This document shows positions 9,930 through 17,203 of a DNA stretch of 64,000 nucleotides, piece after piece. The DNA comes from an uncultured Methylomirabilota bacterium (lineage in GTDB: Bacteria > Methylomirabilota > Methylomirabilia > Methylomirabilales > 2-02-FULL-66-22), in the NCBI GenBank assembly GCA_963845565.1, contig CAWJSJ010000005.1:952818-1016817 (forward strand), given 5' to 3'. The translations under genes were made by a program, and so were the position numbers. Below the pieces are notes generated by a model that saw nothing but the letters and a program-made list of their open reading frames with translations, was not told where the DNA came from and did not search any database. Positions within the stretch are counted from its first letter, which is position 1. Each line of letters starts with the position of its first letter.

Positions 9930-11432
9930 ATGGACACCTACGTATTGGCCCTGGATCAGGGCACGACCAGCTCCCGCGCGATCCTGTTCGACCGACAGGC
10001 CCGGGTGAAGGCGGTGGCCCAGCGGGAGTTCCGGCAGATCTACCCGCAGCCGGGTTGGGTGGAACACGACCCGCTGGAGATCTGGGAGAGCCAGCTCGCC
10101 GTGGCGCGGGAGGCCATCGCCTCGGCCGGGGTGACGGCGGCGCAGATCGCGGCCATCGGGATCACCAACCAGCGCGAGACGACCGTCGTCTGGGATCGGC
10201 GCACCGGCACGCCTGTGCATAACGCCATCGTGTGGCAGTGCCGACGGTCGGCCGCGATCTGCGACGCGCTGAAGGCCGGCGGCTGGGAATCGGCGGTGCG
10301 GCAGCGCACGGGTCTCGTGATCGACGCGTACTTCTCGGGCACCAAGATCCAGTGGCTCCTGGAGCACGTGCCGGGCCTCCGCGCCCGGGCGGACGCCGGC
10401 GAGGTCTGCTTCGGCACGGTGGATACATGGCTCGGCTGGAAGCTCTCGGGGGGGCGGACCTGGGTGACGGACTACAGCAACGCCTCCCGGACGATGCTCT
10501 TCAACATCCACCAGCTCGCCTGGGATGCCAATCTGTGCGGCGCCCTGGGCGTGCCCGTGCGGATGCTGCCGGAGGTGCGACCGTCCAGCTTTCGGTACGG
10601 GCACACGACCCCGGATCTCTTCGGGGCCGAGATCCCCATCGCCGGTATCGCTGGGGACCAGCAGGCCTCCTTGTTCGGCCAGGCCTGCTTCGCGCCCGGA
10701 ATGGCGAAGAACACCTACGGGACCGGCTGCTTCCTCTTGATCCACACGGGGGATCGGCCGGTGGCATCGCAGGCGGGCCTGCTCACGACGATCGCGGCCA
10801 GCCCCGTCGAGGGACGGGCCGAGTATGCCCTGGAGGGCAGTATCTTCATCGCGGGCGCGGCCATCCAGTGGTTGCGGGACGGGCTCCGGGTCATCGCCGA
10901 CTCGGCGGAATCGGAAGCCCTGGCCGCCTCCGTGCCGGACACCGACGGCGTGTACTTCGTGCCGGCGTTCGTGGGCCTGGGTGCGCCGCACTGGGACATG
11001 TACGCGCGCGGCACCATCCTGGGCCTGACGCGCGGGACGACCCGCGCCCACCTGGTCCGCGCCGCGCTGGAGGCGATCGCGTATCAGAGCCGCGAGGTGC
11101 TGGGGGCGGCGCTCTCCGACGCCGGCTTGACGCTGGCGGAGTTGCGGGTGGACGGCGGGGCCACGGCCAACAACCTGCTGATGCAGTTCCAGGCCGACAT
11201 CCTGGCGACGCCGGTGGTCCGGCCGGTCGTCCGGGAGACGACGGCCCTGGGCGCGGCCTACCTCGCCGGCCTGGCCGTCGGCTACTGGGCAAGCCGCGAG
11301 GAGATCGCGCAGAACTGGGCCGCCGACCGGCGGTTCCTGCCCCGGATGGAGCCGACGCGGCGGGAAGAGTTGTTCGCCGGCTGGCGCCGCGCCGTGGCCC
11401 GGGCGGCGGGGTGGGCCCAGCCGACGGGCTGA
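9930..11432 (+). CDS. glpK: Glycerol kinase
   Basis: [45 protein letters not shown] motifs. Confidence 0.97.
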
Positions 11433-12049
11433 TATGCCCGGAGGTGCGAGAAGCAACGCCGAGGCGGCGCACGGGATCAGGGCACACGGATGCGTCGTGC
11501 GACGCGGAAACGAATTGGCCCCGTGCGATCAGTGGTGTCGCACGGGGCCGGTATTTTTGGAGGACGCCTTCCGGCGTCTGGCATGCGCACGGTGTGACCC
11601 CGGATGTCACAGTGGTCGGATAGGCTGGAGCACGCGGGGACCAGGGTTGTCCTCGAAACCTGCTTGGCGCCAACAGTGGCTTGACGGCCATGACGGCTGG
11701 CGGTAGCGTGGCCCGACAATCAGCAGCGGTCAGCCACGCCGGGAGGGGGGAAACGGGGGCGGCCGGTGTGCCTTCTGGTGTCGGACCATCACGGCCCTGC
11801 GCGACACGTGCGTCGCCCAGGGCCGTTTTGCGTTGTGGCGAACGCGCGTCGGGCGGTTTCCAGTGAGTTTGCGGTTTTGATATCGCAATATGCGACATCA
11901 AACGAACAGGCCGGCCGGCGGAAGCTCTTGAATGCTTTCACGGAGCCCGGTGCGATCGTGACCGCCGACGTCCGCAACAGCGACTGGGCCATCGAGGTCG
12001 GCGCGTATCCAGAGGCACCAGAGGGGCGCCTGGTAGAGTGGAGATTTCG

Positions 12050-12352
12050 ATGTCTGAGCGGAGTCTGATTCCGGTGGAGCGGATCGAAGGGGCAATCCTC
12101 ATGCTTAGAGGCCATAAGGTCCTCCTTGACACCGATCTTGCGGCCATGTACGGGGTTGAAACCAAAGCCCTGGTACGTGCGGTCAAGCGCAACCAAGAGC
12201 GCTTTCCGAGCGACTTCATGTTTCAGCTATTGCCCGACGAGTTTGAGGGTTTGAGGTACCATTTTGGCACCTCGAAGTCCCGGGGCGGCCGGCGGTACCT
12301 TCCCTACGCCTTCACCGAACAAGGCGTTGGGATGCTCTCCAGTGTCCTCTAG
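12050..12352 (+). CDS. ORF6N domain protein (short; lacks the C-terminal helix of its neighbour)
   Basis: [22 protein letters not shown]...[16 protein letters not shown]...[17 protein letters not shown] then TAG. Confidence 0.85.
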
Positions 12353-12365
12353 AGCGGGAGGGAAG

Positions 12366-12983
12366 GTGTCCACACGTGAGCAAGGTCTACCATCTGCCGC
12401 GGTGCGCGTCGAAGACATGATCGTGGCCGTTCGAGGTGAACGGGTAATCTTGGACCACGATTTGGCACGGCTCTATGATGTCACGACCAAAGCGTTGAAC
12501 CAGGCAGTGAAGCGGAACCCCGGACGCTTTCCTTCCGAGTTTATGTTTCGGCTCACTTTTCAAGAGGTTGCGGACTTGAAATCAGAATCTGTGACGTCAA
12601 GAACCAGGACGAACCGGTCACAAGTTGTGACCGGTTCCAAGAAGCACCGAAATCCCCGGTTCCCTCCGTATGCGTTCACGGAACACGGCGCCCTCATGGC
12701 CGCGAACGTTCTGCGCAGCCCCCAAGCGGTGGACGTGAGCGTGTTTGTGGTTCGTGCGTTTGTCCGGCTTCGCCGGTCCCTGACCCACCACGCCGATCTT
12801 GCCTACCGCCTTGACAATCTCGAGAAGAAATACGACGCCCAGTTCAAGGTCGTCTTCGACGCCATCCGCCAACTCATGGCCCCGCCGCCGAAACCAAGGC
12901 GCTCCATTGGGTTCAAGGTCGAGGAGGGCCGGCCCGTATACCGGCGACGTCGTCGGCATCGGAGTAACGGCGTAACGGAGTGA
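12366..12983 (+). CDS. ORF6N domain protein
   Basis: RGERVILDHDLARLY...LNQAVKRNPGRFPSEFMFRLT...PYAFTEHGALMAANVL...VRAFVRLR...RRSIGF. Confidence 0.88.
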   Translation: MSTREQGLPSAAVRVEDMIVAVRGERVILDHDLARLYDVTTKALNQAVKRNPGRFPSEFMFRLTFQEVADLKSESVTSRTRTNRSQVVTGSKKHRNPRFPPYAFTEHGALMAANVLRSPQAVDVSVFVVRAFVRLRRSLTHHADLAYRLDNLEKKYDAQFKVVFDAIRQLMAPPPKPRRSIGFKVEEGRPVYRRRRRHRSNGVTE

Positions 12984-13210
12984 CCCGCGCCACTGTCCCT
13001 GTCGAATATCCCTGTCGCCCGCCGGCTTTCGCGTCGAGCAAGGCGGACGGATGTATCCGCGTAGCCCTCGGCAGCGGAAGAGCACGATAAAGATTTGACC
13101 TCCACCGCTGTCGCTGCCGGCCATCCCTGTCGCCCCGTCGGTACCGCACGCGGCGGCCGAGCGGCCGGCGGGGGCAGTGAGTGCGGACGCGGCACACTCG
13201 GCCGCAGAGC

Positions 13211-13303
13211 GTCGCCCCCCGCGCGGGGGCGCGGATTGAAACTGAATCATCAGGTCATGGCAGATCGTGCAGAACGGTCGCCCCCCGCGGGGCGTGAGGA
13301 TTT
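13211..13303 (+). CRISPR. Orphan type I-C-like mini-array 1 (repeat, 34-nt spacer, degenerate repeat)
   Basis: GTCGCCCCCCGCGCGGGGGCGCGGATTGAAAC (13211-13242, 32 nt), spacer 13243-13276, then GTCGCCCCCCGCGGGGCGTGAGGATTT. Confidence 0.8.
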
Positions 13304-13508
13304 GGCCCTGGTCCGACTCGCGGCAGATGCCGGCGACGGAGGCAATCGGGAGAGTGCGGCCGGATCTATAAGCCGAGCGTGGAGAAAAGCCGGGTGGCGG
13401 CTTCAGGGAGCGGGTAGGTCTCGACGTCCTTGAGAGCGGCAGTGATCTGCTGGTGAAAGTCGGTCAGGCGTCTGTCTTACCGATTAAATTACCTATTACC
13501 ATTACTTA

Positions 13509-14551
13509 TTACCCAATACGCCGCCATTTGGCCTGCTTTCCGCGACCAAGGCACTCGACGGACTTCTCCGAGGCCATGTCCTTCAATACCTTCCGAATCA
13601 TGTCCAGGCTGACCTCCGGGCACCTCTTGTGCAGTTCGTTTACATGAAACGCCCCGACGAAACCCGCTACGGCTTGCCGGACGGCCTCGGTCTTTTCTCC
13701 GAGTGGCGGGGGGTGTTTTCATAGCGTGCTTCGAATTCCTGGTACACCTGTTTCAACGTGTAGAGAAGGTAGTTCACATACGGCCAGGGATCGTGCCTTC
13801 CGTCATGCCACCCCTGTGAACTCGCCTGAAGAGTCTCGTAGTAGCGATCCTTGCTCTGCTCAATGAGGCGTTCCAGGCTGATGTAGCGACCGGCGGTGAA
13901 ACCGAGATGGTAAAGCGACTGCAGGAGCAGCAAACGCGACACACGGCCATTGCCGTCACGGAACGGGTGAATGCACAAGAAATCGAGGTTCTGGGCGGCC
14001 CAGATGACGAGCGGAGGGACCTGTTTGTCTTGAATGGTTTGGTCCGAGAGTCTGCAAAGCTGCTCCATGGCAGCGGGGGTCTCCTTGGCGGAAAGGGGGC
14101 GGAAGCGGACTGTGACGCGGCCATCCTGGTGTTTTTCGATTATCTCGCCGTCCGCTATTTTGAAGCACCCACGGTCCCAGATCTGCGGGCGGATCAGAGC
14201 ATGGAGTCGCAGGATAGTCTCCGGCGACACCGAGAGCGTGGCGTGCTGTTCATGGATCAGAGACAGCGCTGTTTGGTACCCGCGTACCTCCTGTTCGTTG
14301 CGGTCCTGTAAATGGCTCTTGCCGAAGATCACGGTGCCGACCCGTCGTTGATCGATCTCTACTCCCTCGATCCGATTAGAGGCGACCGCACTTTCGATCA
14401 GGGCGTGTTCGCGCAGCACCTTCAGTCTTTGAGGCGATTGTCTTGTAAACAGTTCCTGCTTGCCGCGGTATTCGGCGAGATCGTTCAACAGCCAGACAGT
14501 GGCCGTAGGGATCTGGGGCAGTTGACGGAAGAACTGTTCCAGTGTTCTCAT
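13509..14551 (-). CDS. Fic domain protein with C-terminal winged-helix-like segment (apparent -1 frameshift at G6 run 13708-13713)
   Basis: Canonical HPFRDGNGRVSR motif, N-terminal ASNRIEG; adding one base to the run extends the frame through GEKTEAVRQAV...CPEVSLDMIRKVL...GRGKQAKWRRIG* to stop at 13509. Confidence 0.88.
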
Positions 14552-14872
14552 GTTCGTTCTTAATTCTCGATTGTTGATTTTCAGGGGCACGGTACGATGG
14601 CGCCCTGTTTCTGGACCGCAAGCCCGCCAGGGGTGGGCCCACCGGACCGACCACGGGGTGCCGGGCTCGCGGCTTGCGTCCTCGTGGGTCAGGGGGAAGT
14701 ATCTGGCGGACCAGAGACGAACGTCAAGGGGAAAGACGGACCCTCGAAAGCCGGGTCATGAGGGGACGTGATCCCGGACAGCGTACAGACGCTGCGGACG
14801 GCCCGCTCGGCGCGCTACGCCCGTTCCGCGGACCGAGCCGACTTCGTCTCCTTCGATCCATCAAACTTTGCG

Positions 14873-14951
14873 AGCCTCCCCCGCACGTGGGCGTGGATTG
14901 AAACTCACCCCTGACGCCTCCCGCCTCACGATGCTGTTATCGCCCCCCGCA
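14873..14951 (+). CRISPR. Orphan type I-C-like mini-array 2 (5'-degenerate repeat, 34-nt spacer, partial repeat)
   Basis: AGCCTCCCCCGCACGTGGGCGTGGATTGAAAC (14873-14904), spacer 14905-14938, then ATCGCCCCCCGCA. Confidence 0.68.
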
Positions 14952-15043
14952 TCGCTGCAACTTGATCTGGATCAAGGCGGGCGGCGGGGCAGTGGGGCAT
15001 GATGGGGTCAGGTTTTCGGCCGATCTGCTGGAGGGCACACATC

Positions 15044-15655
15044 ATGGACGCACACGCGCCGGGTCCGGTTCCGACTTCCTCGAGCGACGACTCGCCCATC
15101 GCGATTCTCGCGGAGGAGCACGCGCTGATCCTCCGGGCCGTGGAACTCTTGGAGCGCGGCCTGGCCCGGCTGGAAGCGGGAACGTCCATGGGCGGGCCGT
15201 TCTTCGCGGCGTTGGTGGAGTTCTTCCAGGTCTTCGCGGATCGGTACCATCACGGCAAGGAGGAGGGTATTTTGTTCCCGTTCATGGTGGCGGAGATGGA
15301 CTACCCCCAGAAGAGCGGCCCGGTCGGGGTGCTGTCCTCGGACCACACGGCTGGCCGGGCCCATGTCCGGGCCATGGCCGATGCGGCGGCCCGGCTGGAG
15401 GCGGAGCCTGCGGTAGCGTCGGAACTCCTGGAGCACGGCCAGGCGTATGCGGTGCTCCTTCGTGCGCACATTGACCGCGAGGATCACAAGGTGTTCCCGA
15501 CGGTCGAAGACTTCCTCGGGTCGGACGAGCGCGCCGGTCTCTGCGCGGCGTTCGCTCGATTCGAGTCGGCGGAAGGGGGACAGCGCACCGCGGCGCACTA
15601 CGCGGACGTGGTCGGGGTGCTGGAACGTGACATGGGATGGCCGGATCGCTCGTGA
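15044..15655 (+). CDS. Hemerythrin-like (HHE cation-binding) protein
   Basis: EEHALI...HHGKEEGILFP...DH...HIDREDHKVFP. Confidence 0.88.
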   Translation: MDAHAPGPVPTSSSDDSPIAILAEEHALILRAVELLERGLARLEAGTSMGGPFFAALVEFFQVFADRYHHGKEEGILFPFMVAEMDYPQKSGPVGVLSSDHTAGRAHVRAMADAAARLEAEPAVASELLEHGQAYAVLLRAHIDREDHKVFPTVEDFLGSDERAGLCAAFARFESAEGGQRTAAHYADVVGVLERDMGWPDRS

Positions 15656-15733
15656 GGCTGCGGGCGACCGCGCGGCGACGGCCAGGACCGCAACCACATT
15701 TGGAGACGGGTGAGAGCAGAAAGGGATAGCGTC

Positions 15734-16327
15734 ATGTCGAATCACGAGCATGGACATCACCATGGCGAGGAGGGGGCGACCCCCACGCAGATCCTGATGG
15801 CGGAGCACGAACTGATCCTCCAGGCGCTCGAGGCGCTGGGGAAGCGGCTGGATCGGATGGGTGACGACCCGACGCCGGCGGATCGGGTCTACTTCGAGAA
15901 GGCCGTCGAATTCCTGCGAGGGTTCGCCGACAAGTGCCACCACGGGAAGGAAGAGGATCTCCTGTTCAAGCGGTTGGGCGAGCAGGGCTTCCCCACCCAG
16001 GGTGGGCCGATCGCGGTGATGTTGTCGGAGCACCAGGCCGGCCGGGCCTTCATCCGCGGGATCGCGGAGGGGGCGGCCAAGATCGGGTCGGACCCCCGGG
16101 CCGCGGAGACGATCCGGCACAACGGCTGGGGGTACATCGAGTTGCTCCGCAATCACATCGCCAAGGAGAACCAGGTCCTATTCCCGATGGCGGATCGGGC
16201 TTTGTCGGCCGAGGATCAGCACGATCTCGCGCACGCCTTTGAGCGGTTCGAAGCGCAGGAGACGGGGGCCGGCGTCCACGAGCGGATGGTCGGGCTGCTC
16301 CAGGAGCTGCGCGCTGGCGCCGGGTAG
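15734..16327 (+). CDS. Hemerythrin-like protein with His-rich N-terminus
   Basis: HEHGHHH; AEHELI...CHHGKEEDLLF...GPIAVMLSEH...HIAKENQVLFP. Confidence 0.9.
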   Translation: MSNHEHGHHHGEEGATPTQILMAEHELILQALEALGKRLDRMGDDPTPADRVYFEKAVEFLRGFADKCHHGKEEDLLFKRLGEQGFPTQGGPIAVMLSEHQAGRAFIRGIAEGAAKIGSDPRAAETIRHNGWGYIELLRNHIAKENQVLFPMADRALSAEDQHDLAHAFERFEAQETGAGVHERMVGLLQELRAGAG

Positions 16328-16403
16328 CCCAACGCGAACTGTTTGAACCGCCAAGGCGCCAAGGACGCCAAGACGATTAGGGTTGAGAGCGGATTCAGGA
16401 TGG

Positions 16404-16556
16404 CAAGCTGCTGAAGAAACTCACTCTCGTGCAGGCTGTTCAAAAAGGTCCAGATGCAAGGCGGTGTGCGGATGCCCGAGTGAGGCGTACTGGAGGTACG
16501 CCGCAGCGAGTGGCGAGGCGCGCCAACGCCGCAGATGGGCGTTTTTCAACGGCCTG
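16404..16556 (+). mobile_element. Family A palindromic element copy 2
   Basis: CAGGCTGTTCAAAAAGGTCCAGATGCAAGGCG...GGCGTACTGGAGGTACGCC...GCAGATGGGCGTTTTTCAACGGCCTG. Confidence 0.85.
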
Positions 16557-16568
16557 CGAGGAGGGGCC

Positions 16569-17051
16569 ATGGAGACGATGCTGATCCAAGAATTTCGGGC
16601 CGACCACCAGCGGATCCGCGGGGCCCTGTTGCGACTCCACCGGGCCATCGAGGATGGCGACGTTCCCCTCGTGCGGACGATCCTGGGAGGCGCCGATACC
16701 TTGCTGGGAGCGCACTTCAAGTTCGAGGAGCTGCACTTGTACCCGGCCCTCTCCGGATTTCTCGGCGACGACGGCGTCCGGCAGATGTTTCACGAGCACG
16801 ACAGCATCTTCCAGGGCGTCGGCGACCTCATCGGGCTGGCCCAGCAAGCCACCTGGGCCGATCCGGAACGGGATGCGGCGCTGGAACATCTCGGGCTCGT
16901 TGGCGACCACCCCGAGAACTGCGACGACCTCTGCCGCTACATCGAGCGCCTCCCGACCGCCCAGCAGGAATCGCTGCTGGCGGAGATGCACGCGATCCGG
17001 CGGGAACGTCCCGCGTTCACCGCCTACGCGACCGAACGACGAATCGCCTAA
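16569..17051 (+). CDS. Divergent hemerythrin-like protein
   Basis: RBS GGAGG; DHQRIR...HFKFEELHLYP...HEHD...DH. Confidence 0.72.
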   Translation: METMLIQEFRADHQRIRGALLRLHRAIEDGDVPLVRTILGGADTLLGAHFKFEELHLYPALSGFLGDDGVRQMFHEHDSIFQGVGDLIGLAQQATWADPERDAALEHLGLVGDHPENCDDLCRYIERLPTAQQESLLAEMHAIRRERPAFTAYATERRIA

Positions 17052-17203
17052 CAGGCCGCTGAAAACGGCCCATCTGCGGCGTTGGGCTGCTTAGGCACTC
17101 GTTGCGGCGTACGCGCAGTACGCCTCACTCGGCCTTGCGCATCCCGCCTGGCATCTGGACCGTTTTGAGCGGCCTGGGGAGAAGCGAGTTTTTCCGCATC
17201 CTG
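17052..17203 (-). mobile_element. Family A palindromic element copy 3
   Basis: Reverse-oriented copy starting right after the TAA stop: CAGGCCGCTGAAAA...CCATCTGCGGCGTTGG...TTTTGAGCGGCCTG...TTTTTCCGCATCCTG. Confidence 0.85.

Follow-up and report, generated by a model that had tools for sequence, protein, structure and literature searches.

Orphan CRISPR repeats, cargo hotspots at CRISPR loci and integron-like arrays are already known, and integron cassette arrays and CALINs carry toxin-antitoxin (TA) cassettes. In the part consulted of Shmakov et al. (10.1101/2023.03.03.530964), standalone repeats and mini-arrays are reported together with TA cargo at shuffling hotspots, and their origin is ascribed to recombinogenic repeats or to array truncation. 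According to the same text, these units adjoin cas genes, hit PAM-flanked promoters and hold their position, and genomes that lack CRISPR show no enrichment of them; the portion consulted of its main text does not contain the term "I-C". In addition, the consulted sections of Liu et al. (10.1101/2024.10.29.618823) and Camara-Wilpert et al. (PMC10651486) describe phage-borne guides and decoys.

The stretch of DNA analysed here, hereafter the window, is 64,000 nucleotides long and belongs to a Methylomirabilota genome (G000; 5.36 Mb in 6 contigs, 98.7% complete, 6.4% contamination). Two repeat-spacer units lie on its plus strand, one on either side of a fic gene. The left unit consists of a complete type I-C repeat of 32 nt (R1, 13211..13242), whose hairpin has a folding energy of -16.2 kcal/mol, a 34-nt spacer (S1, 13243..13276) and the 5' half of a second repeat (R2, 13277..13293). 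Similarly, the right unit consists of a repeat with a degenerate 5' end (R3, 14873..14904; 25/32 identical to R1), a 34-nt spacer (S2, 14905..14938) and a terminal repeat stub, the trailer end of an array (R4, 14939..14951). The repeat variants of the two units differ slightly. Under a weight matrix derived from 39 repeats found in relatives, R1 and R3 score 44.2 and 30.9 bits, and no other site in the 5.36 Mb reaches 14; the reversed matrix, which served as control, tops out at 14.5 bits in the same genome. Repeat heads follow exactly 34 nt past both repeat tails, with 12/12 matches for R2 and 11/12 for R4 (0/320 control positions reached 9), and the R4 stub is common to the sister species G009 of the same genus (9/12). 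An Rfam scan of the window returned no match. The coordinates, sequences and shared orientation given for the two units in the original prediction are thereby confirmed.

A single base separates R1 from the repeat of the 44- and 30-copy arrays in G030 and G033, two genomes of a sister Methylomirabilota genus of the same order (here termed g7, which also includes G059, G026 and G036). These arrays adjoin cas3, cas5, cas8c, cas7, cas1 and cas2, and the 31/32 identity of R1 to their repeat therefore assigns the units to type I-C, as had been proposed. Both units have the repeat, spacer and degenerate-repeat form of CreA/CreR mini-arrays, with a fusion as the distal repeat of the left one. Its 5' repeat head is present, as predicted for a decayed repeat, but its 3' part is coding DNA of a truncated restriction-modification (RM) gene. 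Codons 1 to 60 of an Eco57I/TaqI-like type IIG RM gene make up this minus-strand fragment (13287..13467), which is frameshifted and cut in R2. It is 78-79% identical to a protein named adenine-specific DNA methyltransferase (P0004), and a member of the same cluster (P0010) has 1328 aa with Eco57I and TaqI_C domains. Since the RM protein homology reaches 13287, inside R2, R2 is read as a half repeat fused to the RM fragment at a short G+C microhomology. This implies that what looks like a "degenerate repeat" may be a repeat fused to coding DNA of foreign origin.

The absence of cas genes from the window, stated in the original prediction, extends to the whole of G000. A profile search gave no match to Cas1, Cas5d, Cas6, Cas7 or RAMP proteins in this genome; the same profiles matched 7/14, 5/14, 4/14, 2/14 and 5/14 control genomes, respectively, and the Csd1 profile, which gave no match in the controls, was not counted toward the absence. 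A tblastn search of G000 with Cas3, Cas5, Cas7, Cas8c, Cas1 and Cas2 of G030 and G033 was likewise empty, and no multi-spacer CRISPR array, hence no main array, was found in G000. Cas7 was detected in 0/21 genomes of the G000 genus and in 6/66 genomes of the order-level comparison set, all six of them in g7. Cas1 of other CRISPR types occurs in two members of the G000 genus, G002 and G004: locus L334 (G002:C237) carries Csm6, a primase-domain gene and cas1, and locus L335 (G004:C210) a Cas9-like gene and a piece of cas1. Further I-C repeats occur in the Cas7-less genus members G001, G017, G004 and G005 (L023, L024, L033, L245 and L246); several lie at contig ends, and they are mostly located beside housekeeping genes, not TA operons. 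In G026, a cas2 fragment immediately precedes a repeat-spacer-stub unit, and G006, of the G000 genus, carries a WYL gene, ORF6N and one repeat with no cas gene. These two cas-deleted analogues show the route by which units such as those of the window originate.

The PAM expected for type I-C is TTC/TTN. In the spacer-target scans, a TTN PAM was required and every sixth position was ignored. Under these settings, no seed run of 11 next to a TTN was found for S1 anywhere in G000, and the best run of S2 is 13, on another contig, a length equalled by 3/12 shuffles; the corresponding self-target candidate (G000:C2:1463173, with TTC) was rejected as lying at null level. When the two spacers were compared with the local region and with cas loci from relatives, no run exceeded 8. 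In the viral search, the first 21 nt of S1 and the last 18 nt of S2 gave 0 matches, and the last 17 nt of S1 matched 47 contigs, the best at 24/34, with TTC in 0 of the best 6. The first 21 nt of S2 matched one contig (25/34 overall, GAG upstream), which was judged a chance match. The original prediction named no convincing target for either spacer in the window, and the genome, the loci of relatives and the viral contigs yield none above chance. Both spacers are unchanged in near-identical strains (S1 in 3/3 metagenome contigs), which fits inertness and conservation alike. One sequencing run contains a joint of 13246 to 14878 that resembles a fic deletion; 34 other letters lie between the two sides, and the joint was attributed to an ordinary array of another organism.

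These results bear on the proposal that the locus is a Cas-regulated Fic addiction module, in which the units act as CreA/CreR-type guides and Cascade represses fic or another gene, the cas genes having been missed or recently lost. The succession of repeat, 34-nt spacer and degenerate repeat is the published mini-array form (10.1101/2023.03.03.530964, in the part consulted), R1 folds normally, and gaps exist in the assembly, as G000 is in 6 contigs. On the other hand, neither cas genes nor an array were found in G000, Cas7 is lacking in the genus, the target runs of S1 and S2 are absent or at shuffle level both genome-wide and in cis, and the spacer is not retained in G009, where an unrelated 34-nt spacer takes the place of S2. 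Moreover, repeats occur at 0/49 loci of Fic homologues in other taxa and at 0/3 other fic loci of the order (L025-L027). A host with no I-C system and homologous fic loci with no repeats are two of the outcomes that the original prediction had linked with inert array remnants. RNA sequencing runs shared at most 0.06 of the query words. Cas-guided repression is therefore unsupported, and the guide reading, to which we give very little credence, is largely refuted; the window units are most likely not regulators. This implies that a cas-less mini-array beside a toxin-like gene need not regulate it.

The gene between the units was predicted to be an antisense Fic gene, and this holds: fic (13509..14551) lies on the minus strand and matches PF02661 (E 6.7e-13), and its open reading frame, which starts at 14551, carries the HPFRDGNGRVSR motif. 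It has 347 aa in independent assemblies. The copy in the window contains a one-base frameshift near 13707-13716 that is absent from those assemblies: the extra base is present in contigs of 3 runs from 3 studies and in the metagenome contigs L336-L338, and two contigs encode 347 aa. Judging from these sequences, the frameshift probably reflects either a private allele or an error of the assembly, and its reading as a sign of a pseudogene was rejected on the same grounds. A tblastn search of plasmids with a 36-aa fragment returned only matches with E values of at least 6. Upstream of fic, a weak sigma-70-like site (14698..14727, minus strand, 9/12 matches) is not significant, since shuffles yield 0.5 such sites per region. 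An N-terminal SxxxEG motif is present in the protein, and SNRIEG lies ahead of the active site in 5/5 Fic-domain proteins aligned. An (S/T)xxxE(G/N) helix N-terminal to the active site is the signature of class II, self-inhibited Fic proteins. As far as the motif indicates, the window Fic is probably an AMPylase that inhibits itself and not a toxin under Cas repression. The consulted part of 10.1101/323253 deals with class III Fic proteins only.

The left unit, the RM fragment and fic belong to a larger island with two ORF6N genes on the plus strand, a short copy with an early stop (12050..12352; PF10543, E 6.8e-32) and a second copy (12417..12983; PF10543, E 2.5e-28). The island (11540..14887, left edge approximate) was delimited by strain divergence, which is 0.2-0.5% inside it vs 4-6% in the flanks, as measured with 3 metagenome contigs that possibly stem from one site and are 98% identical overall. 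At its right edge, after 760 identical bases, the first difference to L337 and L338 lies at 14888, within R3; the left divergence step, at about 11540, has no repeat. Roughly 130 extra bases separate the fic block from R3. From this pattern, we infer that the island was recently exchanged between strain backgrounds with one crossover at R3. Behind the ORF6N genes lies a non-coding element (13105..13211, plus strand) that is also present in G009 and that follows ORF6N genes elsewhere in G000; it is 81% identical to G000:C2:674435-674541 and loses its homology at 13211, the first base of R1.

In G009, the order glycerol kinase, ORF6N, fic, hemerythrin is the same, and the fic DNA is 90% identical. 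The flanks are a glycerol kinase gene with an FGGY match, which ends at 11432, and a hemerythrin gene (14999..15655, plus strand; PF01814). The left unit is missing from G009, the shared fic block stops 1 nt from a half repeat, and the unrelated 34-nt spacer lies between this half repeat and the shared trailer stub. The two arrangements fit a longer ancestral array that would have collapsed differently in the G000 and G009 lineages. Within the G009 spacer (L016:8101-8134), two perfectly matched 8-bp inverted arms flank a 2-nt centre, an operator-like arrangement located upstream of the hemerythrin genes. In the window, three tandem hemerythrin-like genes occupy 14999-17062; the third passes Pfam only in G009, and of 40 relatives compared, G009 alone gave a long match to the first. 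The intergenic segment 16343-16500 is a very high-copy element (summed depth of hundreds to thousands in 4/4 runs), probably a MITE or REP-like repeat.

The original prediction also considered RNA anti-CRISPR decoys, which here would shield a mobile island from an incoming I-C system. A Racr of type I-C has been published (PMC10651486, consulted in part), and the island does seem to move between strains; nevertheless, its flanks are glycerol kinase and hemerythrin genes, 18 ORFs compared with Pfam include no phage family, no promoter match was found on the plus strand, and the genus has no I-C system to inhibit. The decoy reading is accordingly regarded as highly improbable. It might further be supposed that unrelated debris accumulated in one variable intergenic site and that the repeats play no role in rearrangement here. 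G009 carries other debris downstream of fic, and a cluster of ORF6N, Fic and MNT-HEPN genes exists without repeats on G000:C4. Three junctions fall on repeats, however: one at 13211, one within R2 and one at R3 or the corresponding repeat of G009, and we find a mere coincidence of debris hardly credible. The cluster on G000:C4 (179400-184500, L333) has a make-up like that of the g7 I-C loci in their upstream half: it comprises ORF6N, a second Fic gene, an MNT-HEPN pair and a WYL regulator that shares 64% identity with the WYL regulator ahead of cas3 in G030. In G030, G033 and G059, cas3 of the I-C locus is preceded by ORF6N genes; because ORF6N and Fic occur repeat-free elsewhere in G000, the presence of ORF6N in the window is weak evidence that a cas locus once existed there.

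A pattern search of the order revealed solitary repeats spaced about 1 kb apart in g7. Of 14 g7 genomes with a pattern match, G051 (another repeat, with a 72-nt period) and G054 (an array at a contig end) were left out, and 12 loci were examined. In 11/12, type II TA operons lie between full or partly decayed repeats. The modules include Phd/MazE-Doc, several kinds of VapBC, a Zeta-like ATPase, two MNT-HEPN pairs, TumE with HVO_A0114, and DUF433-DUF5615, and the cassettes are short operons with their own promoter-like sites. Nine of the loci closely precede the same ABC-F gene, and the cassette series of G030, G033 and G059 runs on from the trailer end of a complete array. The internal segments (n=33) measure 197-2693 nt, and 24/33 of them fall between 600 and 1100 nt. 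In G059 (L232:1-4900), the array is built of one repeat variant and the cassette zone of the other, together with one hybrid repeat that joins the 5' half of one variant to the 3' half of the other, a product that a crossover in the repeats would be expected to give. In two further loci (L240:7076-7197 in G061 and L242:5371-5491 in G026), an I-C-like repeat lies between a promoter-like stretch and tRNA-Met and ends about 12 nt before the tRNA, and a repeat-like sequence precedes tRNA-Pro in L048. The repeat before tRNA-Met might serve as a site of processing or be the relic of an insertion.

The neighbours of the g7 cassettes switch at the repeats. The Doc module ends 0-2 nt from a repeat in five genomes, and four different partners lie beyond it. 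A left flank shared up to the repeat is followed by a differing right flank in 25/28 between-genome pairs; the same test at sites 300-400 nt away from the repeats, which lie mostly inside genes, gave 1/25, 0/23, 1/27 and 2/27, that is, 4/102. In the discordant pairs, homology ends within 5 nt of the repeat in 17/31 cases on the left and 11/25 on the right, and more than 5 nt away in 14/31 and 14/25, respectively. Both orders were seen for 10/16 module pairs that occur in two or more genomes, one of the ten conflicts resting on a duplication within G036, and the orientation is constant in 37/37 module copies. The g7 genomes are related drafts, and these counts are accordingly not independent and carry no claim of formal significance. 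Because of the neighbour switching, the reversed orders and the fixed orientation, the pattern does not arise from the deletion of parts of one ancestral order; excision with re-entry, or duplication with loss, can yield it.

A guide function was also considered for the sequences that follow the g7 repeats and was rejected. Among PAM-adjacent sites in cis, 1/40 of these sequences reaches 9 vs 11/400 shuffles, so that the target counts are at shuffle level, and only 7/40 are followed by a repeat head, 3 of these 7 being the sites of G000 and G009. Among the listed loci of other taxa (120/121, with a slightly stricter repeat threshold than in the companion search), those with at least 1.6 kb on the trailer side carry one solitary repeat in 2/46 cases and two in 0/46; the pattern is therefore not general to the repeat family. 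Likewise, 1 of the best 80 loci of Doc homologues has repeats, and since these are the same repeats as in one g7 locus, it is not independent. In the literature covered, with most subscription papers outside its scope, no account of repeat-bounded TA cassette arrays was found.

The g7 junctions might be produced by a dedicated enzyme that uses the repeat as an attachment site, such as Cas1-Cas2, which would insert whole operons in the manner of giant spacers, or an integron integrase or REP-associated Y1 transposase that would act in trans on the hairpin in single-stranded form. The exact junctions at repeat edges, the reordering of cassettes with retained orientation and the rarity of trailer-side solitary repeats elsewhere (2/46 listed loci, none with two) agree with such an activity. 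Integron integrases occur in 19/66 genomes of the order, including G000 (TIGR02249; 16/66 genomes passed the cut-off, and control genomes gave no match), G000 also encodes Y1 transposases, and REP-like hairpins adjoin several g7 repeats. A trans-acting enzyme is thus conceivable, since integrases, Y1 transposases and REP-like hairpins exist, although the integrases lie off the cassette contigs. In fact, the cassette contigs have no integrase match, 7/11 cassette-bearing g7 genomes have none at E<=1e-60, and G036, G052, G057 and G060 carry cassettes with no Cas1 found (drafts, 67-99% complete). Many repeats are, moreover, degenerate at one end, and the R2 junction is a microhomology within the hairpin. 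We therefore consider a dedicated enzyme unlikely. A full-length integron integrase of the host lies at G000:C2:1646488-1647432.

The broader reading, in which the I-C repeat of Methylomirabilota is the attachment site of an integron-like TA/defence cassette array that a dedicated activity loads or shuffles and that outlives cas, with the fic island as a decayed cassette, is likewise unlikely. A dedicated recombinase is less likely than plain recombination between repeats, which is the likeliest mechanism.

Based on the results presented above, the units are probably leftovers of a cas-deleted I-C locus whose repeats serve as handles for ordinary direct-repeat recombination, coupled with TA addiction. 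According to this explanation, fic and the type IIG RM segment would have arrived together at the old end of an array; fic is followed by a homologue of the type IIG RM gene in L191. The cas operon and most of the array would then have been deleted, and the repeats that were left would have acted as recombination handles at the window locus. The idea that fic had split an array fragment is hence kept in part: the units are an array remnant, but a plain split does not hold, as fic came with part of an RM gene and the repeats of the two units are not the same variant. In general, 32-bp direct repeats may recombine by excision and re-entry, by tandem duplication with loss and by exchange between strains; the repeats would be passive handles for homologous or microhomology recombination, and TA addiction would hold the cassettes in place. 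The window is a peripheral, decayed case, tied to g7 by analogy and by the three junctions with no shared module; its fic gene is not among the g7 modules, and the features of a cassette array are only partly found at its locus. If it is true that the repeats are handles for the gain, loss and reordering of TA genes, the old end of an array is at the same time a defence cassette array of variable content, and there is a simple reason why TA genes gather at CRISPR loci without Cas regulation. If, on the other hand, a Cas1-Cas2-like enzyme loads kilobase cassettes at repeats, this would be a new mode of gene capture.

Compared with the units in the consulted text of Shmakov et al. (10.1101/2023.03.03.530964), the window units share the repeat, spacer and degenerate-repeat form, and TA cargo beside CRISPR loci is common to both settings; the window, however, has neither cas genes nor a target, and the g7 cassettes are each delimited by a repeat. 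As in CreTA and crlRNA-regulated toxins (10.1101/2023.03.03.530964 and 10.1101/2024.10.29.618823, each consulted in part), a mini-array adjoins a possible toxin gene, but those systems need Cascade and a spacer that matches the toxin promoter, neither of which was found for the window. RacrIC1 (PMC10651486, in the part consulted) similarly shows copies of an I-C repeat away from cas genes; Racrs are solitary, reside in viruses or plasmids and are often near acr genes, whereas the window is chromosomal in a cas-less host.

Orphan CRISPR arrays likewise consist of repeats and spacers left without cas genes, whereas the window is reduced to single spacers fused to foreign gene fragments. As in integron arrays, the g7 operons are each bounded by a repeated hairpin site and have fixed orientation and variable order; however, the g7 site, a CRISPR repeat of 32 nt, has neither the core motifs nor the length of attC on inspection against the attC consensus, and no integrase is linked to it, the TIGR02249 matches being on other contigs. 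Relative to these known systems, the new element is the string of repeat-bounded, reordering cassettes in g7.
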